Source: a bacterium (lineage in GTDB: Bacteria; Zixibacteria; MSB-5A5; GN15; FEB-12). From it: DNA of 64,000 nucleotides. A model generated the notes under the pieces. That model did no database searches. It was given only the letters and a program-made list of their open reading frames with translations, and was not told the DNA's origin. The position numbers and the translations under genes are program-made. Location: assembly GCA_016708025.1 (NCBI GenBank), contig JADJGQ010000002.1, positions 838,232-902,231 of the forward strand, given 5' to 3'. Shown here piece by piece: positions 199-60,703 of the stretch (positions are counted from its first letter, which is position 1; every line of letters starts with the position of its first letter).

Positions 199-2586
199 GT
201 GTCGACAGTCATTGACAATATCGCTCGTGGAACCCAGGTAGATAACCAGACCTTGCCGATCCTTCCGCTTCGCGGGACGATCGTTTATCCGTATCTGGTA
301 GTGCCGCTCATGATCCAGCAGGTCGATCAGACCCGGCTGGTTGATGACGCATTGATGCGCGGGTCCCGTATCGGGCTATTCCTCCAGAAAGACGCCAAGA
401 TTGAAAACCCTGGTCCGGACGACCTGCATTCGGTCGGGACCTCAGGGAATATTCTCAAGATGCTTCGCTTCCCGGATGGGACGGTTCGTTTCCTGATGCA
501 GGGGATCAGCCGCATTAAGATCAAGCGATTCACTTCGACCCAGCCATATCTGATGGCCGAGATCGAAGAGATGCCGGAAAGCACGCGCGAAAATGTCCGG
601 ATGGAAGCGTTGCAGCGGAATATCATCGAGCGAGTGAAAACGCTGGTTGAACTGGCGCCGTATCTCAACGAAGAGTTCCATGTGACGGCGATCAATCAGG
701 ATACGCCATCCAAGCTGGTCGATTTCATCTCTTCCAATCTCAATATCGCAATCGAACAGAAACAGTCGTTGCTCGAAGAGCTGGATGTCTATCGCCGGAT
801 GCAGACTCTGCACCAGTCGATCAACAAAGAGATCGAGGTGCTGGAGCTGTCGCAAAAGATCCAGGCGCAGGCGGCAAGTGAATTGGGGAAATCGCAGCGC
901 GACTACATCCTGCGCGAGCAGATGAAGGCGATCCGCCGCGAACTGGGTGATCTCGATGAAAAAGGGGATGTTGAGGAGTTTGAGAAGAAGATAGTAGCAT
1001 CCGGCATGCCGCAACAGGCTGAACAGGCTGCGCGCAAAGAGCTGGAACGTCTGTCGCATATGTCGCCGTCGTCGGCGGAATACACGGTCTCGCGCACCTA
1101 TCTTGACTGGCTGGTCAGTTTGCCGTGGGTGAAGACGAGCAAAGATCTGCTCGACCTGAAGAAAGCGAAAAAGGTGCTCGACGAAGACCACTACAATCTG
1201 GTCAAAGTCAAAGAGCGCATTCTCGAACATCTGGCTGTCCGGAAACTGAAATCTGATATCAAGGGACCGATCCTCTGTTTCGTCGGCCCTCCCGGAGTCG
1301 GCAAGACCTCACTCGGCAAGTCGATCGCCCGTGCGATGGGACGTGAATTTGTTCGTGTGTCGCTCGGCGGCATGCGGGATGAAGCAGAGATTCGCGGACA
1401 TCGGCGAACCTATATCGGTTCACTGCCGGGACGGATAATCCAATCGCTCCGCCGCTGTGGCACCAATAACCCGGTGATCATGCTGGATGAGATAGACAAG
1501 CTCGGTTCAGATTTCCGTGGCGACCCAGCCTCTGCATTGCTCGAAGTGCTGGATCCGGAGCAGAATGATACCTTTACTGATCACTATCTGGATCTTCCGT
1601 TTGATCTCTCCAAGGTGATGTTTATCACCACAGCCAATATGCTGGAGCCGATCCCGCCGGTGTTGCTGGATCGTATGGAAGTGATCACTATTCCGGGGTA
1701 TACCGATCTCGAAAAGCTGATGATCGCACGGCAGCATCTGATTCGCAAGCAGGTTGAGAATCATGGATTGACGGCCGCCGAACTGGTATTCGAAGATAGC
1801 GCCATTCAGGCGTTGATAGATAATTACACGCGCGAGTCGGGTCTCCGCAATCTCGAGCGCGAGATCGCCTCGCTGACACGAAAAGTCGCGCGTAAAGTAG
1901 CATCGGGATACAAAGGGAAAACTACCCTGACCAAAACCGATGTACCAAAACTACTCGGACCGCGGCGTTTCACGCGTGAAGTACTCGCGCGGCATGGGCG
2001 GATCGGGGTTGTCCCGGGACTGGCCTATACTTCGGTGGGCGGCGATGTGTTGTTTATCGAAGCGACCGTCATGCAGGGAAAAAACTCGGTCGTCTTGACC
2101 GGGCATCTGGGGAATGTGATGAAAGAGTCTGCGCAGGCGGCGCTGTCATTCATCCGGACCAATGCGGCTGATCTCGGTTTGCCGCCCGAGGCGTTTGATG
2201 GACGGGATATTCATATCCATGTCCCGGCTGGCGCAACTCCCAAAGATGGACCCTCGGCCGGTATTACGATGGCGGTGGCGTTGGCCTCAATCTTTACTCG
2301 TCGACCGGTGAAAGCCCGTCTGGCGATGACCGGCGAGATCACGTTGCGCGGAGAATTGCTTCCGATCGGCGGCTTAAAAGAGAAGCTACTCGGGGCGGTA
2401 AGGGCCGGTATTGAGACCGTGATACTTCCGGAAGAAAATCGGAAGGATTTGACGGAGATTCCGCCGGATATTCGGAAGAAACTTGAGATAAAGTACTTTT
2501 CGGATGTCCTGGCTGCCATTAAGTTTGCGTTGGATAAGCCGGTAGTGGCTCACCCGAAGAAGCCAACGGCTGGTAAACGCAACTGA
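199..2586 (+). CDS. lon: ATP-dependent Lon protease (LonA)
   Basis: 795-aa ORF with a GTG start 4 nt after GGAGA. It has an N-terminal LON domain, Walker A GPPGVGKTS, Walker B VIMLDEIDK and the protease serine motif PKDGPSAG. Confidence 0.95.
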   Translation: MSTVIDNIARGTQVDNQTLPILPLRGTIVYPYLVVPLMIQQVDQTRLVDDALMRGSRIGLFLQKDAKIENPGPDDLHSVGTSGNILKMLRFPDGTVRFLMQGISRIKIKRFTSTQPYLMAEIEEMPESTRENVRMEALQRNIIERVKTLVELAPYLNEEFHVTAINQDTPSKLVDFISSNLNIAIEQKQSLLEELDVYRRMQTLHQSINKEIEVLELSQKIQAQAASELGKSQRDYILREQMKAIRRELGDLDEKGDVEEFEKKIVASGMPQQAEQAARKELERLSHMSPSSAEYTVSRTYLDWLVSLPWVKTSKDLLDLKKAKKVLDEDHYNLVKVKERILEHLAVRKLKSDIKGPILCFVGPPGVGKTSLGKSIARAMGREFVRVSLGGMRDEAEIRGHRRTYIGSLPGRIIQSLRRCGTNNPVIMLDEIDKLGSDFRGDPASALLEVLDPEQNDTFTDHYLDLPFDLSKVMFITTANMLEPIPPVLLDRMEVITIPGYTDLEKLMIARQHLIRKQVENHGLTAAELVFEDSAIQALIDNYTRESGLRNLEREIASLTRKVARKVASGYKGKTTLTKTDVPKLLGPRRFTREVLARHGRIGVVPGLAYTSVGGDVLFIEATVMQGKNSVVLTGHLGNVMKESAQAALSFIRTNAADLGLPPEAFDGRDIHIHVPAGATPKDGPSAGITMAVALASIFTRRPVKARLAMTGEITLRGELLPIGGLKEKLLGAVRAGIETVILPEENRKDLTEIPPDIRKKLEIKYFSDVLAAIKFALDKPVVAHPKKPTAGKRN

Positions 2587-45713: not shown

Positions 45714-45787
45714 GCGCCCGTAGCTCAACTGGATAGAGCGTCTGGCTACGGACCAGAAGGTTTCGGGTTCAAATCCTGACGGGCGTA
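45714..45787 (+). tRNA. tRNA-Arg (anticodon ACG)
   Basis: 74-nt cloverleaf folded by hand: acceptor GCGCCCG/CGGGCGT (G1.U72), D-arm GCTC-AACTGGATA-GAGC, anticodon arm TCTGG-CTACGGA-CCAGA, T-arm TCGGG-TTCAAAT-CCTGA, discriminator A. No CCA is encoded. Confidence 0.92.
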
Positions 45788-47039: not shown

Positions 47040-49370
47040 TCACTTCAACAGCATCATCTTCTTCGTCATCACCTGATCACCCGTGACCAAGCGATAGAAG
47101 TAGACACCGGATGAGACCGATGCGCCGCCATCTGTCGTCGAATTCCAGACGACTGAATGACGACCCGCTGCAAGCGAACCATTCACCAGAGTTGCGACTC
47201 TCGATCCGAGGATATTGTACACCTCGAGTGTCACCGGCCCGGCGGTCGGCAGACTGAATTCGATTGTGGTGCTCGGGTTGAACGGGTTCGGGTAGTTCTG
47301 GTCGAGCGTAAACTCCTCAGGCAACGAATTGCCAAACGCGGAGATCTCTCCAGTCGTCCCGCCGCCAAAAGCGGCAGAGGTCGTGCCACGGAAGATGATC
47401 TCATCTATGTACACATCATCCTGATCATTGCTGGCATCACACATGAAGCGGATCTTTGCGTTGGTCGGGAAGTTGTACGTGGTGCGCGGGATTGATACAA
47501 CCGCATGGTAATACGCGTTATTTACGTAGGTAGTGCCAAATATGAAGTTACCGACGGTTAGCCAGGAAGTACCATTAAAGTACTGGACCCAGAAATTCTC
47601 TCCGGACTCCATACTCACACCCTTGAACCAGAAATCAACTTCAAGCCGCTGATACGCTGTCACGTTGTAGCTCGCCGTATGGTAGAATGACGATGCGGTG
47701 CTGCTGTTGTCCTGAATATCAGCAGAATACGAACCCTGATGTGAATTCGTGGTCGTCAGCGCACGCGACATGTCAGAACCACCGTCCGTATAGGACCCCA
47801 TTCCGGTTTCGAAATTGTCCGAGGTGATGGTAGTCCAGGTGGAAGGCGTCGTGGCAGTTATATAGTTGGTCTTGATTTCGCCATCGGAACCGTACGCGTT
47901 GGTGGCGGTCAAAGTCACTGTGTAGGTGCCAGCGGCCGCATAGACGTGAGACGGATTCTTAGTTGTCGACGTACCACCATCACCAAAGTTCCAGGCCCAA
48001 CTGGTCGGGCTGTTGCTTGACAGGTCCGTGAAGTTGACTGTCAACGGCGCATTGCCTGAGGTCGGCGTGCCGCTGAAGTTGGCGACCGGCGGGTTATTGG
48101 TCGAAATGGAGTTCAATGCCGCCGCGGCATTGATCAGACCATAGCCATAATACTGATCCCAGCCCGCTGTACCTTTGTCGGTGGCGGTATTCTGGATAGC
48201 TGCGCGAACCGCGGCGGGAGACATCGTGCCGCCGTTCTTGGCGATCAAGAGAGCCGCAACACCGGCTACATGCGGACAGGCCATCGACGTTCCTTCGTAG
48301 AAGTAATAGCCGAAGGTTCCGTAGTTCGTCCCGTCGTGCGTCTGCTGCAGTACGCCATCAGGGTAGGTGTCGCCATTTTGGTCAACCGCAACGTCGCCAC
48401 CCGGGGCGCAGATATCAATGGTCGAACCAAAACAGGTGTACCAAGTATAGGTCTGGTCATAACGGACCGCAGAGACAGAGATACACTGCGTGTACGCCGC
48501 GGGATACTGCGGCGCAGAGGTACCTTCGTTGCCGGCCGCGCAAACGATCGTAACGCCGAGATTGTAGGCGTACGTGATCGCGTCCTGCAAAGCGGTCGAG
48601 GTGGAGGGTCCGCCAAGGCTCATGTTGATCACTTTAGCGCCATTGTTGGCCGCGAAGGTGATGCCGTTGATGATGGCGGTATAGGTACCGTTTCCGGAAG
48701 CATCCAGAACCTTGACCGGCATGATGCTGCAATTGTAGGCGACACCCGCCACGCCGAGGCTGTTGTTGGTGGTCTGGGCGATCGTGCCCGCCACGTGCGT
48801 GCCATGGGCGCAGTCATCGTTCGGATGAGTGTCATTGTTCACGTAGTCATAGCCCGGCACGAAGGAAGTACCTGCCAAGTCTGGCGCCTGTGTAAAGGCT
48901 CCATAGGTCTCATAAGCAACGCCGCAGTCGATAACGGCCACGACAACACCTGAACCGGTAGACTGATCCCAGGCGGCCGGCATGCTGATCATCGGCATAT
49001 GCCACTGGTAGCTGTAATACGGGTCGTTTGGCGTCATGAAGGCCTGAGCGATGTAGTTCGGCTCGGCGTATTCGACGTCCGGTCGGCTGCTGAATGCGGC
49101 AACCATCTCTTCGACTGTCTTGTCAGCGGGGATATTCAAAAGATTGATGCCGATCGACGAATTGGTTTCTGCAAGAGTAGTGCCCAGAGCGGCTTGAGCG
49201 GCGGTGATCGCCTGTCTGCCGACGTCGGCTTTAAATTTCACAATTACCTGGCCCGGCGCATAGGTTGCACCAGTTTCGACCACGCAGGATTTCCCAACTT
49301 TAAAATCCTCGGCTGCGGATGCGAAGCTGAAAAGGGCAAGAACCAGAACTAGTGTGAGAAAAGTTCTCAT
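47040..49370 (-). CDS. Secreted subtilisin-family (S8) protease with a PKD domain and T9SS C-terminal domain
   Basis: The start is trimmed to MRTFLTLVLVLALFSFASA/AE. It has an I9-like propeptide and the catalytic triad motifs VAVIDCG, HGTHVAGT and GTSMACPHVAG. A PKD repeat (WNFGDGGTS...GTYTVTLTATN) and the CTD NYPNPFNPSTTIEFSLP...YFYRLVT..KKMMLLK follow. Confidence 0.92.
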   Translation of the reverse strand: MRTFLTLVLVLALFSFASAAEDFKVGKSCVVETGATYAPGQVIVKFKADVGRQAITAAQAALGTTLAETNSSIGINLLNIPADKTVEEMVAAFSSRPDVEYAEPNYIAQAFMTPNDPYYSYQWHMPMISMPAAWDQSTGSGVVVAVIDCGVAYETYGAFTQAPDLAGTSFVPGYDYVNNDTHPNDDCAHGTHVAGTIAQTTNNSLGVAGVAYNCSIMPVKVLDASGNGTYTAIINGITFAANNGAKVINMSLGGPSTSTALQDAITYAYNLGVTIVCAAGNEGTSAPQYPAAYTQCISVSAVRYDQTYTWYTCFGSTIDICAPGGDVAVDQNGDTYPDGVLQQTHDGTNYGTFGYYFYEGTSMACPHVAGVAALLIAKNGGTMSPAAVRAAIQNTATDKGTAGWDQYYGYGLINAAAALNSISTNNPPVANFSGTPTSGNAPLTVNFTDLSSNSPTSWAWNFGDGGTSTTKNPSHVYAAAGTYTVTLTATNAYGSDGEIKTNYITATTPSTWTTITSDNFETGMGSYTDGGSDMSRALTTTNSHQGSYSADIQDNSSTASSFYHTASYNVTAYQRLEVDFWFKGVSMESGENFWVQYFNGTSWLTVGNFIFGTTYVNNAYYHAVVSIPRTTYNFPTNAKIRFMCDASNDQDDVYIDEIIFRGTTSAAFGGGTTGEISAFGNSLPEEFTLDQNYPNPFNPSTTIEFSLPTAGPVTLEVYNILGSRVATLVNGSLAAGRHSVVWNSTTDGGASVSSGVYFYRLVTGDQVMTKKMMLLK

Positions 49371-49757
49371 TTGCCTATCCTTCCGTACAACTGTGAGGGT
49401 TGTGCATGTGAGCCTGCCGGTCACGTTTCCATAGAACTGGAGTGTCGCATTGCGGCGCTCACCTGCAATTGAAGTTAGTTAATCAGCAATAACAAGAACC
49501 GCGGAATTATTTGATCAGAGATTCTCTGGCGAGTTCACCCCCCTTCGTTCGACGCACACCCACACCACAGCATCACGCATTAGAGAATCACCTGTGAGGA
49601 CCGCGACATAAATGTGACCGGTTTTTGTCTTTAATTGTTGGTGTTGAGATCATCAACGATGATGTAATAAGGGAGAGGGGAATCGATTATGCAAGAAAAA
49701 ACCTCACACGCAACAATGTCCCTGTTGGCATTTTCGTGGACACTTCAGTAAAGAATC

Positions 49758-49827: not shown

Positions 49828-52809
49828 TCAACTCGTTAACTTCGCCAGTCGGGCTTTCGCATCTTTGATCTCATCGATCTGTATGTCCGCATTTCCCCAA
49901 AACTTAAGCATCTCACTAAAGTACTTGGTCGCCTCGGCCTTGTTTCCCAGACCTTCGTAACCGATCCCGATATAGTACAGAGCCATCGGATAGCCGATCC
50001 CGCCGGAACTCTCTTCTTCACCGGAAACGAATCGCTTGAGTATGTCGATCCCCTCCTGGTAAGAGCCACGGCTGATCAGAATATACGCCATCTCCCGATC
50101 GTTGCCGCTGTTGCCCTGTTGCTGCGTTTTGATCAGATCGCGATATCCTTCGAGCAACAACACGGTATCGGGTCTTGCCAGACCTTCGAAAATCTTCTCC
50201 AGCCCATCTGTGATCCCCCAGAGCTCGGACGGAATGCGTGATTTGAATTGAGCGATATCCTCACGAATCATCTTTCGCGCCTGATCAGCTTTGGAATGAT
50301 CATGCTCCACTAAAACCAGCGCATAGTTGCTGAACATGTTCGCGGTGCGATACCGATAGGATTCTTCATACAACTTGAGTCCGGTGTCGGTGATACCGCA
50401 GTGAAGATAGCCGCGAGCCACTGTCTGGAGTGTATTGGCGAGAATGCCGCTATCGCCAAGTTGCTTGGCGGCATCAGCCATGCGATCGTACTGCTGCAGC
50501 GCTTCTCTGAACTTGCCGTTCCAGATCGCCAGCGTGGCCATCTGCTCATAATAGTCGACCATGTCATACAGATTGCCGGGGTCGAGTTGCTTGTAGTTCT
50601 CGGTTAGCGCGGTGGCTTTGGCAAAGTCGCGACGATAGATAGCCAGACGGATCAGATTGGCCAATGCGCCGCGATGTTTCGGGAAGCGCGCCAGGATAGC
50701 GTCAAATTCTTTTTCCGCCAGATCTCTCTTCCCCTGCTGCAGGTAAGCGCTAGCCAACAAGGCATACGGATTAGGCGAATCCGGGTGCTCCCGTTTCGTT
50801 TTCTCCGCGATCCGGATCGCCTCGTCATACTTGTCAAAGCTGATGTATATTTCCGAACGGAAATCCTGCGGAAGCTGATAAGTCGGGTTTATGGCGAGCG
50901 CGGAATCAAACTGCGCGAACGCCTTGGTCGTATCCTTGGTGAACTCGTAAACCAGGATCCCATAGATGGTGCGCGCTTCGATGTCGTCAGGATAGTTGCT
51001 CACCATGGAACGCATCTTAGCGAAGGCGTCATCGAACTTCTTGTTCATCCAGATATCGGCGTAGACATCCAATAGACTCCGTTCGCGGACGGGCAGTTTC
51101 GACTGATATTGCAGAGCCTTGGCTATATACCCGGCGGCTTTTTGCGGCCGTCCCTGAAAGGCATTGATCATCCCCAGGCGCATATAGGGGAGAGCGAACG
51201 TCGAATCGAACGAGAGTGCCCGCTCAAAATTGACGATCGCTTCTTCGTTCAGTCCTTTCAGGAAATTCTCCAGCCCCAAAACGTAGTTTTTGAAGGCTTC
51301 GGGAGAGGCCGAGGTCAATTTGCGAATATCCTGATCGCCCGTGGCAGTGGCAATATTCATCGAACTGGCGATCTTGTCGGTCAGGCTGTCGACCAGCACA
51401 AACGGGTCTTCGCCGACAACTTTTTCACCCATCAGTACGCGACCGCTGGAGGCTTCCTCCAAACGAGCATCGATCCTGATCTGCTTCCCGACCTTGAAGA
51501 GTGTACCGGTCAGGACATTGGTGGCACCAAGCTTTGAGGCGATCGCCCGACTGGCATCGCTGGAGATCTCGCCGCCATTGGCTTTGCTCGGTTCCAGCAT
51601 ATCCAAAATGCGCTGGCGACTGATCAAGTTCATTTCCTTATTCTGCGCCAGGTCGGTCAGCAGCATCTCCGGAAGGCCGGACTCCATCCAGTCGTATTCC
51701 GGATCGCCGGTTTTATTGGCAAAGTCCAAGACAGCCAGGCTGTTCGGCTTTGCCTGCAGGTCAACACTGAAACTCAGATTGGAGCCTTCAGAAAAGAACA
51801 CTTTCCAGACAATTCCGATCACCGCGATCGCGATCACGGCGGTTTTCCAGTCGATGATCCATGACTTGGATTTCTTGACCGTCTGTGGTGCCGCGCGCAA
51901 TGCAGAGATGGAATCCGACGTACCGCTTTCGTAGAGACGGCGGAGATTGCGAAGGTCCACTACCAGATCGCGTGTATCCTGGTAGCGGTCGTTCGGGTCC
52001 TTGTGCAGGCACTTGTCAACGATCCGTTCCAGCTCCATGGGAATCGTCTCGTTGCGCATCCGAATAGAGTCGTGGCGCGCTTCGAGGATCTTGGCCAGAG
52101 TGGAGACCTCGGTCGGTCCAGTGAAGGGAAACTCGCCGGTCGCCATCCGATAGAGCAACACACCGAACGAGAAGATATCGGATCGAATATCCACTACCTC
52201 GCCGCGGATCTGTTCGGGTGACATATAAGAAACCGTGCCGACTATCTTACCGGCGCGGGTCAGCTCTTTGGAAACAGTGCGTGTGGAATCACCCTCGGAG
52301 AATTGTACCGGCTGCACCGGCTTCGCCAATCCAAAGTCGAGGATCTTTGGCTGGTCATCCTCGTTCACGATGATATTGTCCGCCTTGATATCCCGGTGTA
52401 CCACATTGATCTTGTGGGCCGCCGCCAATCCCGAGGCGATCTTTTCCGCCAACTTAACCACGGTGGAAATATCGGAGGACCGTGCTTTCATGTAGTCGGA
52501 AAGGGATTTTCCCTTGACGTACTCCATGACGATGAAAGTTACGTCGCTGCCGGCGGCATCCTTGGTGGTGTCAATGTCATAGATCGCCATCACGTTCGGA
52601 TGTGAGACCTGCGCGGCGGTCTTGGCTTCCCGCTGGAACCGGGCAAGACGATCATCATCATCTCCCGGTTTGAAAGAGAGGATCTTGAGGGCGACCTCGC
52701 GATGTAGTTTCTGGTCTTCCGCGAGATAGACCTGTCCCATTCCTCCTTCTCCCAGGAGTTTGATGATCTTGAAATGGGCGAAACTCTGGCCTGGCTCAAG
52801 CATGGTCAT
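49828..52809 (-). CDS. Hanks-type Ser/Thr protein kinase with TM, TolB-N-like domain and a long TPR array
   Basis: 993-aa ORF with GEGGMGQVY, ALK, HRDIKADNI, DFGLAK and SYMSPEQ. A TM segment (AVIAIAVIGIVWKVFF) is followed by LAVLDFANKTGDPEYDW... (TolB-N-like) and ~450 aa of TPR. Confidence 0.92.
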   Translation of the reverse strand: MTMLEPGQSFAHFKIIKLLGEGGMGQVYLAEDQKLHREVALKILSFKPGDDDDRLARFQREAKTAAQVSHPNVMAIYDIDTTKDAAGSDVTFIVMEYVKGKSLSDYMKARSSDISTVVKLAEKIASGLAAAHKINVVHRDIKADNIIVNEDDQPKILDFGLAKPVQPVQFSEGDSTRTVSKELTRAGKIVGTVSYMSPEQIRGEVVDIRSDIFSFGVLLYRMATGEFPFTGPTEVSTLAKILEARHDSIRMRNETIPMELERIVDKCLHKDPNDRYQDTRDLVVDLRNLRRLYESGTSDSISALRAAPQTVKKSKSWIIDWKTAVIAIAVIGIVWKVFFSEGSNLSFSVDLQAKPNSLAVLDFANKTGDPEYDWMESGLPEMLLTDLAQNKEMNLISRQRILDMLEPSKANGGEISSDASRAIASKLGATNVLTGTLFKVGKQIRIDARLEEASSGRVLMGEKVVGEDPFVLVDSLTDKIASSMNIATATGDQDIRKLTSASPEAFKNYVLGLENFLKGLNEEAIVNFERALSFDSTFALPYMRLGMINAFQGRPQKAAGYIAKALQYQSKLPVRERSLLDVYADIWMNKKFDDAFAKMRSMVSNYPDDIEARTIYGILVYEFTKDTTKAFAQFDSALAINPTYQLPQDFRSEIYISFDKYDEAIRIAEKTKREHPDSPNPYALLASAYLQQGKRDLAEKEFDAILARFPKHRGALANLIRLAIYRRDFAKATALTENYKQLDPGNLYDMVDYYEQMATLAIWNGKFREALQQYDRMADAAKQLGDSGILANTLQTVARGYLHCGITDTGLKLYEESYRYRTANMFSNYALVLVEHDHSKADQARKMIREDIAQFKSRIPSELWGITDGLEKIFEGLARPDTVLLLEGYRDLIKTQQQGNSGNDREMAYILISRGSYQEGIDILKRFVSGEEESSGGIGYPMALYYIGIGYEGLGNKAEATKYFSEMLKFWGNADIQIDEIKDAKARLAKLTS

Positions 52810-54458
52810 TTCCTTCTGACGAGCAGCATAGTTATATCGTCCGAGCGGGGGCCGTCCCCGACATACGCTTCAATATCTTCCGTCAGGCGACGGGCTATTA
52901 CGTCGATCGACTCAGCGCGGTTGGCAACGACAAGTTTTTCCATGCGCAGATCGGTGTATGGTTCTTCGCCGCGCATCGCTTCGGTGACACCGTCGCTGAA
53001 TACAAAAATGAACTCCCCGGAAGATAAGTGAATGGTTGACTCCTGCCACGTTGAAAAATCAAACGCCCCAATCATAGTTCCGGAAGGTTGCAGATACTCA
53101 AGCGAACCATTCGCACGAACCACCAGCGGCGGATTGTGGCCGGCATTGACAAATGTGACCGTTTCGCTGTCCGGAGTGATCAATCCCATGAAGAGGGTGG
53201 CAAAATCTTCCGGCGCGCTATAGCGGTGCAACTGTGTGGAAACCGATTTGACCGCCCGCTCGAGCGTGAAAGTCGGGTCGTTATAAAAGATTCGGAACGA
53301 GGCAAGAATATTCGACATCAATAATGCCGCGCCGAGTCCTTTACCGGATACATCGGCCACCAGAAAGACGAGCCGACCATCGGGGAGCGCCGCGACATCA
53401 TACAGGTCACCGCCCACCAGTCGTGACTGGCGCTGAAAAGCGTGGACATCAAATCCACTTATCCGCGGCGGTATTTTGATAAGCAAATTGCTTTGGATCG
53501 AAGCGGCCCGGTGCAGCTCGGCATCGATTAACTGCTTTTCCTGTCGCGCCTGCAACAACTGGTAGTTCATCAGCCGGGCGGCTATAATATTACCGAAGGT
53601 CGCCAGCAATCGAAGGTATTCGTCGCTGTACCGGTGGAGAGGATTGGTGGTGTCGACATACAGTATCCCAAGCACCTTGTCTTCGTCCATCATCGGTACC
53701 GCCATAGCCGATTTCATCGCCGACATAATGACGGACTGCTGAGAGGCGAAGCGGGGATCGCTGGTTGGATCGCCGATCAGGATCGCGCTTTTATTGGTCA
53801 GGATCTCTCGAACGATCGTCCGCGAGAGAGTAAAGGTCCCCAGATCACGGCCATTCGGCAGAAGAGTCGCCGCGGCGAAAATCTCGTTCTGGTCGGAAGA
53901 TGTAAAAAGCACCGCCAGTCGTTCCGATGGGATCACCTTTGCGACCAGGGAGAGGGCGCGTCGAAGCATCTCTTCCTGCGGCTCCGGCAGGACGAGGGTT
54001 TTAGCCATATCGAACAGAGTCGGCAGCAGTTCGGGAAGGTCGGTCACTCGGGTTGGGAGCGGTTTGAGCGCTTCATTCATCGACAGGAAAACCGAGTGCT
54101 CGGCAATATTCTCGGGAAGTATCGCGCGGGGAAAACTGGTCGAATCGTTGGCCGGGGCAGTGCCGGAGGAGAGCTTGAATTGCGCCTGTCCAAAGGTCAG
54201 ATGGTCGCCCGCTTTGACCTGAATCCGGCCGCTAAGTTTCTTGCCGTTAACGAATGTGCCGTTGTGACTCTCAAGGTCCGTGAGAAAGATGACCAGAGGA
54301 TCGGGCCCTATCTCAAACTGAGCATGTTTGCGTGAAACGGTTTTGTCCGGGACCACCAGATCGGCCTCAGAACTTCGTCCGATCACATAGTTTCCGCTAT
54401 CCAGCATCCAGGAGTAGTATTGAGAGCCATCCGATCCAATGAGTTGAATCACGTACAT
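52806..54458 (-). CDS. FHA-GAF-SpoIIE/PP2C phosphatase
   Basis: FHA domain (YVIGRSSEADLVVPDKTVSRKHAQF...HNGTFVNG), a GAF core, and a RsbU-type PP2C (GGDLYD, VADVSGKG, NAGHNPP, FSDGVTE). The start is ambiguous: ATG 54458, GTG 54452 or TTG 54482. An ATGA overlap links it to the kinase gene. Confidence 0.88.
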   Translation of the reverse strand: MYVIQLIGSDGSQYYSWMLDSGNYVIGRSSEADLVVPDKTVSRKHAQFEIGPDPLVIFLTDLESHNGTFVNGKKLSGRIQVKAGDHLTFGQAQFKLSSGTAPANDSTSFPRAILPENIAEHSVFLSMNEALKPLPTRVTDLPELLPTLFDMAKTLVLPEPQEEMLRRALSLVAKVIPSERLAVLFTSSDQNEIFAAATLLPNGRDLGTFTLSRTIVREILTNKSAILIGDPTSDPRFASQQSVIMSAMKSAMAVPMMDEDKVLGILYVDTTNPLHRYSDEYLRLLATFGNIIAARLMNYQLLQARQEKQLIDAELHRAASIQSNLLIKIPPRISGFDVHAFQRQSRLVGGDLYDVAALPDGRLVFLVADVSGKGLGAALLMSNILASFRIFYNDPTFTLERAVKSVSTQLHRYSAPEDFATLFMGLITPDSETVTFVNAGHNPPLVVRANGSLEYLQPSGTMIGAFDFSTWQESTIHLSSGEFIFVFSDGVTEAMRGEEPYTDLRMEKLVVANRAESIDVIARRLTEDIEAYVGDGPRSDDITMLLVRRK

Positions 54459-54782
54459 ATCCTCTTTAGGTGGTGGGGCCAAAACACGGGCAACCCCTCA
54501 AGTCATCAGATGGGGAGCGTGTCGGCAACTGGTTAGTCAATGTAACCGGAAGGGAGTTAAAGAGAAATAGGAAAGAGTGGGGTGAGCAAGGCGGAGATAA
54601 AAAGACACCCAGCAACCAAACTCGCCATGGCTGCCGGGTGGTTTAACCCTCTGTTGCACATGAGGGCATTTTTCCCCGTTTGCGATGTCCCGCTCCCGGG
54701 AGACAACTTTTTGCCGGGGTCGTGAGAGCTTGCCGCATAGGGCAACCGTCTCCCTGACTGACTCCAGCTTCGCAATTAATAC

Positions 54783-54797
54783 GCAATATGAATGCCA
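54783..54797 (-). promoter_or_regulatory. Sigma-54 (-24/-12) promoter
   Basis: The minus strand reads TGGCAT-TCATA-TTGC, against the consensus TGGCAC-N5-TTGC, with correct GG-to-GC spacing. It sits in the gap directly downstream of a sigma-54 activator gene and points at the FHA-phosphatase gene. Confidence 0.65.
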
Positions 54798-54921
54798 ACT
54801 AACTTATCTACTTTAGATGACGTATGCTGTTGTTGAATAGTGCAATACGGATAGCACTCAACCTGATTAGTGATGATATGGTGGTATGCACCTCAAATCA
54901 GGCCTAAGCAATCGGGTAATT

Positions 54922-56280
54922 TTAACCCAATGAGATACCGAGGTTGTCAATTTGCTTCCGCATATTGGCTGGGTCCTTGCCGAACTCTCTCGCCACTTTG
55001 CTGACATTCCCTTTGTGCCGATCCAGCGCCTTGACTATCAGGATCCGCTTGAAATCCTTGACCGCCTCATCAAAATCGTTCGGGATACCGGCAGCCTTGT
55101 CGCCTATTTCGAGCTGGTTCAGGACATCCCGGCGGGAGATGAAGTATGAAGGGGTATCGGCCAGGAGTGCTTTGATTTTCTCATACAGTTCGCGGACATT
55201 GCCTCGCCAGTTATGCTCGATCAACAGATCGCGTCCCTCCTGGTCGAAATATTTGGGATCGATCCTGGCCTCATCGCAGTACTTCTCAACGAAGTAGTCT
55301 ATTAAGGCCGGAATGTCTTCTCTTCGTTCGCGCAACGAGGGAAGCGAGATCACTGTCCCGCGTATGCGAAAATAGAGATCTGACCGAAATTTCCCCTGAT
55401 CTACCATTCCGGCGAGATCGGCATTGGTCGCGCAGATCAAGCGGACATCGACCTGTTCAGTCTCGATCGCGCCGAGGCGGAGTATTTCTCCGCTTTCCAG
55501 AACTCGCAGGAGTTTGACCTGCGTGTTGTGATCGAGTTCTCCTATCTCGTCGAGAAAGACCGTTCCTTTGTTTGCATGCTGCAAAAGTCCGACCTTATCA
55601 CTATTCGCGCCGGTAAAGGCCCCCTTGAAATGCCCAAACAACTCATCCGCGACCAGATCCGGCGCCTTCTGACCGCAGTTGTAGGCGACGATCGGTTGTC
55701 CAAAGCGGGGGCTGAGGCGGTGAATCGCTTTTGCCACCAGTTCTTTCCCCGTACCGGTTTCACCGAGGATCAGCACTTTCTGGTCCTTGGGACCGATTTC
55801 GTCGATCTGGCGGTATATCTCCAGCATCTGGCGCGACTGTCCGACCATTTCGAACATCTCACGGGCATAGGCGATGAGCGTTTCCGGATGTGTTTTGAAC
55901 AGCGAACTGCGAACCGCATTGCGCACGGCCGTTTCCAGTCGCTCGGGGTTCTCGTTCTTCCCAATATAGTCGTATTGCTGCTCTGCATCCCGCTGCTTGT
56001 GCGAGTATTCCCCCGGATAGCCAGTGTGAAAAATGATCGGGATGTCGAGCGGGATAGCCCGGATCCGTCGGGCCGTCTGAAAGCCATCCATCTTGGCCAT
56101 GCGAATATCAAGAATGATCGCCGCGGTATCGGTGTGAGATCGAAGCTGATCGAGTGCTTCCTGACCGGAGGTCGCCACGACCACCTCGTATCGGTCCAGA
56201 AAAATTTCGCGAAGCGCTTCCAGCACCAGCGGATCATCATCGACGATAAGTATTTTTCCGCGAATCTTACTCAGTGGCAC
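54922..56280 (-). CDS. Sigma-54-dependent response regulator (NtrC family)
   Basis: The track ORF is trimmed to GTG 56280 (GGGAGG 5 nt upstream), giving (M)PLSKIRGKILIVDDD. It has a receiver Asp in ILDIRMAKMDG, an AAA+ domain (GETGTGKE, GAFTGA) and a C-terminal Fis-type HTH. Confidence 0.92.
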   Translation of the reverse strand: MPLSKIRGKILIVDDDPLVLEALREIFLDRYEVVVATSGQEALDQLRSHTDTAAIILDIRMAKMDGFQTARRIRAIPLDIPIIFHTGYPGEYSHKQRDAEQQYDYIGKNENPERLETAVRNAVRSSLFKTHPETLIAYAREMFEMVGQSRQMLEIYRQIDEIGPKDQKVLILGETGTGKELVAKAIHRLSPRFGQPIVAYNCGQKAPDLVADELFGHFKGAFTGANSDKVGLLQHANKGTVFLDEIGELDHNTQVKLLRVLESGEILRLGAIETEQVDVRLICATNADLAGMVDQGKFRSDLYFRIRGTVISLPSLRERREDIPALIDYFVEKYCDEARIDPKYFDQEGRDLLIEHNWRGNVRELYEKIKALLADTPSYFISRRDVLNQLEIGDKAAGIPNDFDEAVKDFKRILIVKALDRHKGNVSKVAREFGKDPANMRKQIDNLGISLG

Positions 56281-59200
56281 GTGTACCTCCCGCTTCCGCG
56301 TTAAAGCGCGGAAGCATGATGTCAAAACTTGTTCCATGTCCATGTCCGGAAGTGACCTTGATCGAGCCTCCGTACATCTCAGCAATTTTCTTTGCCATCG
56401 CCAATCCAATACCGGTTCCGCTGCGCGGTTTGGTGCTGAAAAAGGCGTTAAATATCCGGGGTAGGTTCTCGGCAGGGATCCCGGGACCATTGTCTGCAAC
56501 CCGGATCGATACCTGATCCCGAGTGGTCCGCGCCGTGATCGAGATGAGCGGTTGTTCCGTTTCGTGCAGCGCATCGATCGCGTTGACCACCAGGTTATTC
56601 AGCAGGCTGTTGAAATGCGGCACGCTGCAGGCAACCACAGCGTCCGGGGAGATATTCGAGTCGACGCGAACTCCGTGTCTTTCACAGCGAGCTCGATTTT
56701 GCTCAATGATCTCTGTGACCAGATTGCCGACAGAGACTTCTTCGATCTTTCGATTCGCTTCCAGCCGCGAGTAATGGGTCACCGATTCGGTCATATGGAT
56801 CGCCCGGGCGATCGCCTGTTCGGCCAGTCCCAGAAGCTTGAGGTCTCGCTCGGCCTCTTCGCCAGAGCCTGATCTTCCTTCCAGCCGCTCACGCATTTTG
56901 TAGAGGCAGGTAGTGGCAGGGAAGAGGGAGTTGTAGATCTCGTGCGAAACACCTCCCGCGATCTCACGGACCTGCTGGTAACGCTCCTGGTAGATCCGCT
57001 GGAGCTCGGCTTCCGCATGAACTCGATCAGTGATGTCGATGGTCGTTCCCAACACACAGGTCTGGCCCATGAACTGGATCACTTTTGCGGAGTAATCAAC
57101 CCACCGATACTCACCATCTTTGCGAACTATCTTGACCTCGTAACGTGGGGGGACCTCGTTCCCAGCCAGCCGGTCCCGGCCGCGCTGAGTCACCAATTGC
57201 CTGAAGTCGGGGTGGATGACTTCCCAGAAACTCATTTTCAGCAATTCATCGAGACTGTACCCCGTGATACGCGTTGACGCGGGGTTGCAGTAGAGAAGGC
57301 GGTCGGCTCCAAAGATAGTGATTCCTGCGGTCACGGACTCAGCAACAGCTCGGAATTTCGCTTCACTCTCGCGCAGACTGAGTTCGATCTGGTGTCGGGC
57401 CGTGATATCCAGCCAGGTCGCCTGGATAAGGACCCGATCAGGCGCCTGGATCCGCCGAGCCAGTGCCTCGAGCCGCTTGGGAGTCCCCTTGAAAGTCGTG
57501 ATTTCGGATTCAAATTGGGCCGGTGCGTCACCACCCGTGAGGCGGCGGCGGATTCTATCCATCCATGCCACGACATTCTCTTCTCCGACCAGAGCCTTGA
57601 GAAAGGCCGGCATCGGCATAGATATAAGTTCGTGTACATCGATCTCCAGCATACGGGCGAGTTGCTCGTTGGCATACAGCACCTGAACATCGTCGTACTG
57701 CAGTATCCCCAGATTGGAGTGCTCGGTCAAACCGCGGAATTTTTCCTCACTCTCCCGGAGTGCTTCTTCGGCGCGCATTCGTTCGGTAATGTCCTGATAT
57801 GTGCCCAGCACACCCACCACGGTACCATCGGGATCTCGAAGCGGCACTTTGCTGGTCAGGAGGTGAATGATCTCACCAGTTGGCGTAGTCTGCGGTTCTT
57901 CGATCAGCAGCTTCGGCTCTCCACTCTCGATCACCGCACGGTCGTCGGCCCGATAAAGATCAGCTTGTGCCCGCCAGACCATGCTATAATCATCTTTGCC
58001 GATGATCTCTTCCGGGGTGTTGAATCCCGCATCTCGCGCAAACTGTGAATTGCATCCCAGGTAAAGCCCTCGCTTGTCTTTCCAGAATACCCGCGCCGGG
58101 ATCGAGTCGAGCACGATACCAAGGAACTCACGTGAGGCCCTCAATTCTTCCGTGGCGATTTTCTTCTCCGTAATATCGATCATAACTGTCAGAAAGAACT
58201 CTGTTTCCTGACTTCGGATAACTTCCCCGCTGAAGAGGCCGTGGAGTATCACTCCGTCTTTGCGGCGGACTCGCATTTCAATATCTGTGATCCGGCCGGT
58301 CTGTCTCAAGCGCCGACCGGCGGCAGATTGCTGATCAATATCAACGAAGATAGACAACTCACTCGGTGTGTGGCCGATCACTTCATCCCGATCATGGCCG
58401 ATCGTTTGCAGGAACGAATCGTTGACATCGACAAAACGCCCATGTGTAGTGTCCGTCAGTGCCATGAGAGCCGGATTGAATTGAAAAAGCTGCTGGAACA
58501 GCATTTTGGCTTCCTGTTCGGCACTCAAGTCCTTACTGAGGCCAAAGAGACACTCGGAACCATACCATCTGCCGAACCAGAGGCGAGTCTCGACTGAGAC
58601 CAACGATCCATTCTTTTTCAGCAAGGGGAGTGGGCAGTCATTGCGCTTTCCCCGCAGGATAGCATCGATCAGACTCAGTGCCTCCTCCCGACGATCCGCG
58701 GGATGCAGGTCGACCAGCTTCATCGTCGTGAGCTCTTCACTTGAATAGCCAAGCTTGGTCCGGAGTGCCCTATTGGTCAGAAGGATGCGACCAGCTCTAT
58801 CGGCCACGATCAGCATATCGCCGATCGTCTCAAAAAACGCTCTGAAATTGGACTCACTATCCCGAAGGGCCTGCTCGGAGCGTTTTCGATCTGAGATGTT
58901 GCGGACGATCGCCAGGACTTCCGAAGGTCCGCTAGCCACGATGCGTGCTTCGTAGTCCTCGAAACGATTTCCCACCGGCAACTGGTATTCAAGGTACTGA
59001 GTCTCTCCGTTACTTAGCACCTTAACGATCGCTCCATGCACCATCTCGGCCAGCGGCGGAGGCAGAACGTCCCGTGCAGGTTTTCCGAGGAACTGATCAC
59101 CGGGAGAAAAGAGCTCGGATTGTCGACTCGCCTGATAATCAAGGAATATGCCGTCAGCCGTCATCCTGAACATCAGGTCCGGTGTGGCATTAAGCATCGC

Positions 59201-60703
59201 GTCATTGCGGGCTTCAGCCTTTTTCAGCGCATTGATCGCATGTCGGCGCCGGATATTCACCACAACCAATTGAATTGACACCAGGAAGAGGGCAATGACA
59301 AACCAGGTGCGATAACGCCAGAGCAACGCAACCAATCGCTGCGACCATGGTTTCGCCTGCAGATTGCCGACCAGGAATCCGTTTCCGGCATTGGTGACAA
59401 ACATGGTGACGCCGCCGGTTGAATCGAGCGCGGCCGGAAGCAGTTCGCTGGCAATGCCTGGAAGGTACCCGCGGCATTCCCATCCCTTGCTGTACAAAAC
59501 AGACCCGCCCTCCACGACAAACTGCAGGACCGTCTCCCCGGATTTTGGGAGTTGGAACTGAGTGAGGTACTGCCCCAGGTTTGCCCCGGTGATGCGGGCG
59601 AGCGGTTGGAGTGACAGATCGAAAATCGACGCGTCTCCTCCGGTGCCGATCAAAAGGATCTCCGGTCGTTCGTCGCCTATCAGGTCGACCAACTCAAGGA
59701 AGGCGGTCCTCTCTTGAACTGCTATGGACTGTCGGAGAGTCCCATCTGCGTCAATGATAGAGAGCCAGTCATTGGAAGAATCGCCTGACTGACCGGGAAA
59801 CTCAAATTGGTGAATGAGCGCATACAGCGTGTCACCGGGGAGGGTGCGAATAGATACGCTGGCGAATTTCGGGGCGAGACGATAATTAAAGATGATCTCG
59901 CCGCGTTGATTGAGGCGTGTCAGATAACCATACTGGTCATCGAAATTCGGATCCGTGACGCCGTTCTCCGGGCCATAGGCGCAAACAAGTATCCCCGGAT
60001 CGATCGAATCAAAACAGCTAACTGTATTGCCGGGGGTAGCCGAGGCCGCCATCGGCATGGACCACTCCACCACCATCCGCTCGATATCAATGCAGTAATA
60101 GACCCGCGGTCGTTTGTCGCGGCCAACCATCAGGTAGAAAAACAGCTCGGTCGTACCGTCGTAATCATAATCAAAGCTGGCGATATGATAGGGGGATGGT
60201 ATCCATTTGCCATTGCCGGTCTGATCGACTCCGGTAGTCAGAAAGAGCATATCGAACTTGTTGGAGCCGGGGAAATTGCGGGCAATGAACGCGGAATCAT
60301 TGCGAAACCCTATCAATGCGACACCATCACGCCGATTTACGGAGTCACGGAAGAGGCAATAATCACTGATCGTCAGGAAAACCGGGTCCTGGGAGAGCGT
60401 GCGGTTGTCGGGGAGCGAATTCACAAAAATCGAGGCGGCATCATCCTGATTGATGGCACAGTTTGAGACAAAGATGTACGCGATGGAATCTGATGCGGTA
60501 CGGCGCGTGGTGAGAAGTCGAGCGGGGCGATTGACCGACATCTGATTTTCGGTATGGCTGGACTCGATGAAGTGAGTGACACCATACGGCAATAGAGTGG
60601 TATCGCCGATCGGATCGGGCTCGATCACTTGTTGGGCGGATGTCATGCCAGCCGTCAGCGAGTAGACAAGCCAGACAATCAGAAGACGCGCCAAAGAAAC
60701 CAT
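56267..60703 (-). CDS. Sensor histidine kinase with a large periplasmic domain and six PAS-like domains
   Basis: 1478-aa ORF with a signal/TM segment, ~450 periplasmic residues and a second TM (WFVIALFLVSIQLVVV). Six PAS-like segments each follow a coiled ...LRESE... linker. H-box GVSHEIYNSL and HATPase motifs NAIDAL, DNGPGI and GTGIGL are present. Confidence 0.9.
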   Translation of the reverse strand: MVSLARLLIVWLVYSLTAGMTSAQQVIEPDPIGDTTLLPYGVTHFIESSHTENQMSVNRPARLLTTRRTASDSIAYIFVSNCAINQDDAASIFVNSLPDNRTLSQDPVFLTISDYCLFRDSVNRRDGVALIGFRNDSAFIARNFPGSNKFDMLFLTTGVDQTGNGKWIPSPYHIASFDYDYDGTTELFFYLMVGRDKRPRVYYCIDIERMVVEWSMPMAASATPGNTVSCFDSIDPGILVCAYGPENGVTDPNFDDQYGYLTRLNQRGEIIFNYRLAPKFASVSIRTLPGDTLYALIHQFEFPGQSGDSSNDWLSIIDADGTLRQSIAVQERTAFLELVDLIGDERPEILLIGTGGDASIFDLSLQPLARITGANLGQYLTQFQLPKSGETVLQFVVEGGSVLYSKGWECRGYLPGIASELLPAALDSTGGVTMFVTNAGNGFLVGNLQAKPWSQRLVALLWRYRTWFVIALFLVSIQLVVVNIRRRHAINALKKAEARNDAMLNATPDLMFRMTADGIFLDYQASRQSELFSPGDQFLGKPARDVLPPPLAEMVHGAIVKVLSNGETQYLEYQLPVGNRFEDYEARIVASGPSEVLAIVRNISDRKRSEQALRDSESNFRAFFETIGDMLIVADRAGRILLTNRALRTKLGYSSEELTTMKLVDLHPADRREEALSLIDAILRGKRNDCPLPLLKKNGSLVSVETRLWFGRWYGSECLFGLSKDLSAEQEAKMLFQQLFQFNPALMALTDTTHGRFVDVNDSFLQTIGHDRDEVIGHTPSELSIFVDIDQQSAAGRRLRQTGRITDIEMRVRRKDGVILHGLFSGEVIRSQETEFFLTVMIDITEKKIATEELRASREFLGIVLDSIPARVFWKDKRGLYLGCNSQFARDAGFNTPEEIIGKDDYSMVWRAQADLYRADDRAVIESGEPKLLIEEPQTTPTGEIIHLLTSKVPLRDPDGTVVGVLGTYQDITERMRAEEALRESEEKFRGLTEHSNLGILQYDDVQVLYANEQLARMLEIDVHELISMPMPAFLKALVGEENVVAWMDRIRRRLTGGDAPAQFESEITTFKGTPKRLEALARRIQAPDRVLIQATWLDITARHQIELSLRESEAKFRAVAESVTAGITIFGADRLLYCNPASTRITGYSLDELLKMSFWEVIHPDFRQLVTQRGRDRLAGNEVPPRYEVKIVRKDGEYRWVDYSAKVIQFMGQTCVLGTTIDITDRVHAEAELQRIYQERYQQVREIAGGVSHEIYNSLFPATTCLYKMRERLEGRSGSGEEAERDLKLLGLAEQAIARAIHMTESVTHYSRLEANRKIEEVSVGNLVTEIIEQNRARCERHGVRVDSNISPDAVVACSVPHFNSLLNNLVVNAIDALHETEQPLISITARTTRDQVSIRVADNGPGIPAENLPRIFNAFFSTKPRSGTGIGLAMAKKIAEMYGGSIKVTSGHGHGTSFDIMLPRFNAEAGGTRATE

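Follow-up and report, generated by a model that had tools for sequence, protein, structure and literature searches.

The sigma-54 promoter-like sequence at positions 54797-54783 of the minus strand is probably the core promoter of a self-contained cassette, in which a sensor kinase and a sigma-54 activator are joined to a small RNA. The FHA-PP2C gene farther downstream could be a target of read-through, rather than the primary product of the promoter. The window, that is, the whole 64-kb stretch of DNA analysed here, contains the following features around the site:

56267 to 60703, minus strand: multi-PAS sensor histidine kinase of 1478 aa, with Pfam matches to PAS_4, PAS_9, PAS, PAS_3 and HATPase_c
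54922 to 56280, minus strand: NtrC-family response regulator/bacterial enhancer-binding protein, with REC, AAA+ (containing GAFTGA) and Fis-type HTH domains
54783 to 54797, minus strand: putative sigma-54 promoter TGGCAT-TCATA-TTGC, recognised from its sequence, its one exact match in the window and its conservation
52806 to 54458, minus strand: FHA-GAF-PP2C (SpoIIE) phosphatase, the next gene downstream (Pfam), with ATG at 54458 and the ribosome-binding site AAAGAGG at 54467-54461
49828 to 52809: Ser/Thr kinase-TPR gene (Pfam), after the FHA-PP2C gene

The activator gene starts at a GTG (56280) with the ribosome-binding site GGAGG and ends at 54922. Its product matches Sigma54_activat (PF00158, 1e-61), Response_reg (PF00072, 1e-19) and AAA_lid_14 (PF25601) in Pfam, with a borderline match to HTH_8 (PF02954; 21.4 bits against a cut-off of 22), and the GAFTGA loop, read from the translation, is intact at the codons around 55623. 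At cut-off, no NCBIfam equivalog (NtrC, AtoC, ZraR, GlrR, NtrX or LuxO) was matched by the activator and no specific NCBIfam name by the kinase; the closest homologues of the activator bear Zixibacteria names. This protein is the only one with GAFTGA in the window and is encoded directly upstream of the promoter, which lies inside the 463-nt gap between the activator stop (54922) and the next ATG (54458). The Pfam matches and the translation thus agree with the preliminary description, which had placed the promoter in the gap following a GAFTGA activator. The kinase stop overlaps the activator GTG start by 14 nt (56267-56280), and the FHA-PP2C stop overlaps the start of the Ser/Thr kinase gene by 4 nt (52806-52809), which suggests translational coupling within each of these two pairs. 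The window also carries a tRNA gene at 45714-45787 on the plus strand (64 bits).

A sigma-54 promoter is defined by a -24 GG and a -12 GC separated by exactly one helical turn (TGGCAC-N5-TTGC). The site, read on the minus strand, is made up of TGGCAT (54797-54792), TCATA (54791-54787) and TTGC (54786-54783), with the -24 GG (54796/95) and the -12 GC (54784/83) 12 nt apart and a departure from TGGCAC-N5-TTGC at the sixth base only; motif, strand, spacing and departure were all found on re-reading to be as originally described. TGGCAY-N5-TTGC has one exact match in the 64-kb window, against 0.26 expected, and the site is also the sole match in 64 kb to the relaxed TGGCAY-N5-TTG. When one mismatch was tolerated, 7 motif matches were observed in the window against 8.3 expected. 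In a scan with a canonical sigma-54 position weight matrix (PWM), the weights of which are approximate and follow the published consensus, with absolute values being indicative only, the site ranked 2nd among 127,970 window positions with 13.68 bits. The top scorer is intragenic (49170-49185, 13.80 bits), and two further sites reach 12.1-13.1 bits. Three of the four best PWM matches (47373-49185, minus strand) are located inside an S8 peptidase/PKD/T9SS-tail ORF (47040-49424) and are probably due to composition or chance. As an intragenic site scores as high, the match is good, but its score alone is neither unique nor proof of function. The original claim that a match of this quality is rare by chance was therefore overstated, as by the PWM the site is not clearly above the intragenic background. 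A chance match without function would fit both this equally good intragenic score and the occurrence of TGGCAY-N5-TTGC at least once in 23 of 100 shuffled windows, but it is extremely improbable, given that 12 loci, each retrieved independently, all have invariant boxes at a fixed position. It is because of this conservation in orthologous loci, and not because of its score, that the site stands above chance.

The orthologous loci were fetched via the activator protein only, and 12 non-redundant regions were aligned with MAFFT. By activator identity, the fetched loci comprise L001, L003, L004, L005 and L112 (61-97%), L006, L007, L008, L108 and L109 (51-54%), and L111 and L011 (47-48%). Twenty-one columns of the 12-region alignment are invariant, 4 in the coding end of the activator and 17 in non-coding DNA. 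All 17 invariant non-coding columns fall inside the 42 columns of two enhancer palindromes (UAS1 and UAS2, described below) and the -24/-12 boxes, whereas the remaining 128 non-coding columns contain none (Fisher p = 2.5e-12; 12 loci), the surrounding non-coding DNA being about 50% conserved. Compared with L112, whose activator is 97% identical, the window shows 28 differences over 495 nt, with none in the half-sites or promoter boxes.

Within the promoter, the pattern GGCA...T.G is invariant in all 12 loci and is found at a fixed distance from the activator stop codon. The GG-to-TTG spacing is exactly canonical in 10 of the 12, and the other two (L111 and L011) read GGCAY-N5-TCG. After the -12 G, 2 loci have C, 4 have T and 6 have A; with the -12 C not conserved, the orthologous promoters depart from the textbook definition. 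The near-consensus -12 element pointed out at first is thus real in the window, which has GC, but shared by few of its orthologues, and the alignment of intergenic regions that had been suggested as a check upheld the invariance of GGCA and T-G but not that of the -12 C. Two related loci, L013 (TGGCATGCCAGTTGT) and L012 (TGGCATGGAATGTGT), are also without the -12 C. The -12 element may have undergone a lineage-specific relaxation, and the sigma-54 of this lineage possibly reads a relaxed -12 (TTG-A/T, not TTGC). A variable -12 C within a strictly conserved promoter represents a natural data set on the needs of the -12 element.

The same variability of the -12 C would also fit if TGGCAY-N5-TTG were the binding site of another protein or part of a different type of promoter, and the canonical promoter rules may not be those of this uncultured phylum. 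Such an identity is quite improbable, however, in view of the canonical GG/TTG spacing in 10 of 12 loci, with GGCAY-N5-TCG in two, and of the position of the site, which is 80-125 bp downstream of two palindromes, adjoins the GAFTGA activator and is 12 nt upstream of a predicted RNA, a classical enhancer-dependent layout. Moreover, the site is without the dyad symmetry that the site of a dimeric repressor should have. A sigma-54 promoter served by the adjacent activator is therefore the preferred reading, and the elements upstream of it are as follows:

54915 to 54927, minus strand: UAS1, GGTTAAAATTACC, GGT-N7-ACC, overlapping the last Gly codon and the stop codon of the activator
54880 to 54892, minus strand: UAS2, GGTGCATACCACC, GGT-N7-ACC, the conserved GGTG-N5-CACC palindrome
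54822 to 54836, minus strand: semi-conserved CAAC-N4-(T)TA element, situated about 35 nt before -24, between enhancer and promoter

The GGTG-N5-CACC palindrome (54892-54880) had already been put forward as a possible activator site, and its conservation as GGT-N7-ACC makes this plausible; the TGCA/AGCA half-sites proposed alongside it (54841-54911) lie in non-conserved columns and were rejected because they are not conserved. A second GGT-N7-ACC site (54927-54915), 35 bp upstream of the first, had been missed, and both palindromes are plausible activator sites. In UAS1, the pattern GGTT.A....AC is invariant in 12/12 protein-fetched loci and in 17/17 aligned loci; its 5' half is also under coding constraint (Gly and stop), and its 3' half, AC(C), is non-coding. 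In UAS2, GT.......AC is invariant, and 10 or more of the 12 loci also have the outer G and C. The centres of UAS1 and UAS2 are 35 bp apart, about 125 bp and about 90 bp upstream of -24, respectively, which agrees with the distance of about 80-150 bp expected for the activator sites of a sigma-54 promoter, and such a tandem GGT-N7-ACC pair occurs once in the 64-kb window. Spacing is fixed within 1-4 bp in the eight loci measured (the window, L001 and L003-L008), with 34-35 bp between UAS1 and UAS2 and a gap of 81-84 bp between UAS2 and the promoter. Between enhancer and promoter, 10 or more of the 12 loci agree in columns C54832, A54831, C54829 and A54823. The relatives' consensus there, AACAACGGCTTAC, resembles the IHF consensus, quoted as WATCARXXXXTTR for the glmY promoter (PMC3045617), and the window copy is weaker, having ATA for TTA. 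An IHF-assisted promoter should have a WATCARNNNNTTR site between enhancer and promoter, where the semi-conserved CAAC-N4-TTA is present; this element is possibly an IHF-like bending site.

Downstream of the promoter, the gap was found to contain the signals of a short, structured and terminated transcript:

54599 to 54771, minus strand: predicted small RNA of about 173 nt (fold, conservation, terminator)
54646 to 54667, minus strand: hairpin SL-A, GCCCUC-AUGUGCAACA-GAGGGU (RNAalifold pairs 122-143; loop invariant)
54599 to 54640, minus strand: intrinsic terminator, a 13-bp stem followed by UCUUUUU (-24.3 kcal/mol)

The transcript would start near 54771, which is 12 nt past the -12 C, and end in the U-tract at 54605-54599. 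The fold energy of the ~173-nt region is -73.1 kcal/mol (z = -2.84). Among the six close sequences (activators 61-97% identical), the 5' half of the RNA is variable and the 3' 104 nt are nearly invariant, far better conserved in the close relatives than the flanking proteins. In SL-A, all bases from CCCTC through GAGGGT are identical in 6/6 sequences. The terminator stem, in which CACCCGGCAGCC(A) pairs with (U)GGUUGCUGGGUG around the invariant loop UGGCGAGUU, has three pairs with compensatory double changes and five more with one-sided changes to or from G-U wobble. A simple terminator scan of the region did not detect this terminator because its loop is longer than 8 nt. When a covariance model was built from the 3' domain of the window type, its six training sequences (window included) scored 112-123 bits, by construction; the window contained no further copy, and none of 32 other loci gave a significant match (best E = 0.25). 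Rfam 15 includes Qrr, CrcZ, Pxr, GlmY/GlmZ and riboswitches, and a search at its gathering thresholds gave no match in the window region or across 12 whole related loci including their RNA regions. With E up to 10, the region gave only a spurious mir-221 match on the terminator.

A 72-aa ORF with a TTG start (54775-54557) appears in the ORF list and a 31-codon ATG ORF follows GGGAGA, so that the transcript might be taken for a small mRNA encoding the 72-aa product or that of a shorter ORF within it. We give this almost no credence. The 72-aa ORF begins before the predicted start and continues across the terminator, the 5' domain has indels whose lengths are not divisible by three, and no Pfam match was obtained. 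The small-ORF readings were rejected in view of the differences in the 72-aa frame, which affect 0 synonymous versus 23 non-synonymous codons, and of the 31-aa ORF being missing from L001 and L003-L005.

A non-coding RNA is consistent with what is found at the same position in more distant loci. A stable hairpin with a U-tract is present 67-272 nt past the predicted start in 17 of 19 related loci, one of the two exceptions being truncated and the other ambiguous. The RNA sequence differs in the distant relatives, where the terminator follows the predicted start by 141-272 nt (67 nt in L012, a short variant). The 3' hairpin of these relatives carries a conserved GUGCUCG loop, with double changes at 6 of 12 pairs; 97.5% of cells are paired, compared with 37-52% in slid controls, and 0 of 500 shuffles reach the score. 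Against the window-type covariance model, none of the distant relatives' RNAs is significant, the best being L092 (E = 0.27), and this search does not show that the RNA types descend from one ancestor. With no detectable cross-homology of the 3' domains, the claim of a phylum-wide RNA family is therefore one of shared position and architecture rather than of sequence. Just before the 3' hairpin, every sRNA variant (window, L006-L008, L095, L099, L108, L109, L111, L011 and L012) has purine-rich, Shine-Dalgarno-like motifs (ACAGAGGG, GGGAGGGAGGA and GAGGGGGGA). The recurrence of these motifs in all variants, together with the invariance of the loops, suggests a trans-acting regulator, and the RNA most probably acts by base-pairing or protein titration. 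A local base-pairing search for targets of the two invariant loops returned only self-matches and coding-sequence coincidences.

The preliminary description had the promoter facing the next operon, a view that is not supported, as a predicted ~173-nt RNA would come first and end 140 nt before the ATG, and unrelated or convergent genes follow in relatives. Only the close relatives (L001, L003-L005 and L112) keep the FHA-PP2C neighbour, which is on the same strand in each of them. Elsewhere, the next gene after the RNA is hycI (L006) or a DsbD-like gene (L008), both convergent on the opposite strand, hypA (L007, L108 and L109) or a peptidase M14 gene (L111). The kinase, activator, enhancer, promoter and RNA persist, with the kinase and activator missing only where a contig ends before them. 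Wherever a related locus reaches far enough upstream, a HATPase_c sensor kinase is encoded ahead of the activator; this kinase is of the multi-PAS type in L001, L003, L006-L008 and L108-L110, and in L111 it has HATPase_c and a faint FG-GAP_3 match, with no PAS family. That promoter and terminator are retained next to changing or convergent neighbours indicates an independent gene, not a leader.

Alternatively, the promoter would serve the FHA-GAF-PP2C/Ser-Thr kinase operon through a 325-nt cis leader, which is the distance from the promoter to the next ATG, with a conditional terminator of the attenuator or riboswitch-like kind. Leader and operon are co-oriented, all six close relatives retain the neighbour, and the terminator is followed by a conserved CU-rich block; in addition, a simple scan found no same-strand sigma-70-like promoter between the terminator and the ATG at 54458. 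Nevertheless, this arrangement is unlikely, because the orthologous units of L006 and L008 end before convergent genes and unrelated genes follow elsewhere, the terminator is very stable and conserved in sequence, and no Rfam riboswitch was matched. Nor is there a conserved upstream segment to compete with the terminator, since the 5' domain is the variable part. The 140-165 nt separating terminator and start codon likewise speak against it. Partial read-through may nevertheless accompany production of the sRNA, and given the same-strand next gene and the lack of a sigma-70-like promoter in the scan, some read-through into the FHA-PP2C operon is possible in the close group.

The CU-rich block is located at 54529-54576 on the minus strand, about 25 nt past the terminator (TCTTTCCTATTTCTCTTTAACTCCCTTCCGGTTACATTGACTAACCAG). 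Its consensus, TTTCCYCTTTCTCTTTAGCTnnCTTCCAGTTACATT..CCAG, is found only in relatives keeping the FHA-PP2C gene and has no sigma-70 match. The block could serve as the FHA-PP2C promoter or as an element of the 5' UTR; it could also act as an anti-Shine-Dalgarno sequence or be targeted by the G-rich sRNA. Pairing of the block with the ribosome-binding site is present in the window's fold and missing from the relatives' folds, and was discarded; nothing informative came from predicting duplexes, without constraints, between the RNA and the 5' region downstream.

In distant Zixibacteria, the cassette is found beside hydrogenase maturation genes (hycI, hypA, hypB-like, hypF, hypC, hypD and hypE) in four loci and beside a cbb3 oxidase/FixGH cluster in one. 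These neighbours occupy 7707-8502 of L006, 7844-13356 of L007, 4918-7353 of L108, 4947-7353 of L109 and 7721-13356 of L008. This hints at a redox or H2-related signal for the cassette, though the window's neighbour differs. The Ser/Thr kinase-TPR gene of L003 (9499-12511) and hypA of L109 (4947-5294) are split into short called genes, likely by assembly-error frameshifts or as pseudogenes. L006 also carries a TPP riboswitch at 929-1023 (minus strand), upstream of a TonB-dependent receptor gene.

Metagenomes were scanned for both palindromes together with the promoter pattern, and 5 of the 18 matches were found to have the C-terminus of the activator upstream and were accepted as true loci; the 13 matches without it were discarded as chance. 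When genome contigs were searched with the activator alignment, the back-translated patterns were generic AAA+ motifs and therefore picked up mainly paralogous loci of the NtrC family, near-orthologues being obtained only at L010-L013. The cassette occurs in the complete genomes CP070756, CP070777 and CP070674. The enhancer/promoter/sRNA module was absent from L110, L010 and L013, whose activators are 46-51% identical, so that not all of the nearest homologues are accompanied by the cassette; L013 instead has TGGCATGCCAGTTGT immediately before a protein gene. A broader proposal is a lineage-wide kinase/activator/sRNA cassette shared by Zixibacteria and relatives binned as Ignavibacteria, whose RNA output comes in at least three sequence types, all with purine-rich, Shine-Dalgarno-like motifs before the 3' hairpin. 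Taken as a whole, this proposal is tentative and rather doubtful. The cassette RNAs could be global post-transcriptional regulators, acting by protein titration or by pairing with CU-rich mRNA (for example 54576-54529).

Based on these results, a mechanism is proposed for the cassette. The multi-PAS histidine kinase would phosphorylate the NtrC-type response regulator, which would assemble on the tandem GGT-N7-ACC palindromes (54927-54915 and 54892-54880), beginning at its own stop codon. DNA looping, possibly helped by a bend at the CAAC-N4-TTA element, would bring the regulator to the promoter, where ATP hydrolysis by its GAFTGA AAA+ domain would open the sigma-54 holoenzyme complex at 54797-54783. 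Transcription would then proceed from about 54771, stop at the terminator at 54640-54599 and yield a non-coding RNA of about 173 nt. This RNA would consist of a variable 5' domain and a near-invariant 3' domain formed by SL-A and the terminator hairpin with their conserved loops.

A sigma-54 promoter beside the gene of its own activator is ordinary, and the added value of this analysis lies in the corrected target. The predicted RNA is the first candidate two-component-controlled sRNA for this uncultured phylum, and the cassette offers, as predictions, a core promoter, the ends of the RNA and an enhancer motif that occurs twice (GGT-N7-ACC). In annotation, the seemingly empty 463-nt gap should carry an ncRNA gene, not a 5' region of the FHA-phosphatase operon. 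A full-text literature search for Zixibacteria and sigma-54 returned no paper.

Several known systems resemble the cassette in layout. In Myxococcus xanthus and related myxobacteria, pxr is found downstream of nla19 and apparently has its own sigma-54 promoter and enhancer site (PMC5568312). Pxr is described as folding into several stem-loops including a terminator, some of them conserved and another variable (PMC5568312; PMC5684412). As with pxr and nla19, the sRNA gene here lies in the gap directly downstream of a sigma-54-dependent response-regulator gene. The two differ in phylum and in length (108 nt for pxr versus about 173 nt for the Zixibacteria RNA) and share no sequence or Rfam similarity; moreover, the Zixibacteria enhancer begins within the stop codon of the regulator gene and is some 125 bp away from -24. 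In Pseudomonas, the crcZ promoter is RpoN-dependent and CrcZ is about 400 nt in length. There too, the sRNA gene adjoins the gene of its own NtrC-family activator, crcZ always being immediately downstream of cbrB with its own promoter in the gap (PMC5113210). CrcZ sequesters Hfq/Crc via A-rich motifs, whereas the Zixibacteria RNA is purine/G-rich and unrelated in sequence, and co-transcription of cbrB and crcZ is a demonstrated feature of the Pseudomonas system.

The GlmY/GlmZ-GlrK/GlrR (QseE/QseF) system of Enterobacteriaceae has the same layout of response-regulator palindromes and sigma-54 promoter, and possibly shares an IHF-like site between them. The glmY gene adjoins two-component genes and has a sigma-54 promoter with GlrR sites (TGTC-N10-GACA) upstream and IHF-like sites between (PMC3045617). 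In contrast to the Zixibacteria RNA, which is encoded downstream of its two-component genes, glmY is located upstream of them. It has three activator sites versus two here, where the half-sites are GGT/ACC, and in E. coli an overlapping sigma-70 promoter, of which none was seen here. The Qrr sRNAs are induced by phosphorylated LuxO, and both Qrr and NrsZ are sigma-54/RpoN-dependent. NrsZ is described as induced by NtrB/C under nitrogen limitation (PMC4253122). Qrr and NrsZ resemble the predicted RNA in being sRNAs under a phosphorylated NtrC-family regulator but have no sequence relation to it, Qrr being about 100 nt and Hfq-dependent and NrsZ being processed from repeats. By sequence and structure, the Zixibacteria RNA belongs to none of the Pxr, CrcZ, GlmY and NrsZ families. 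The order of activator, enhancer, sigma-54 promoter and sRNA known in Pseudomonas and myxobacteria appears to recur far outside Proteobacteria.
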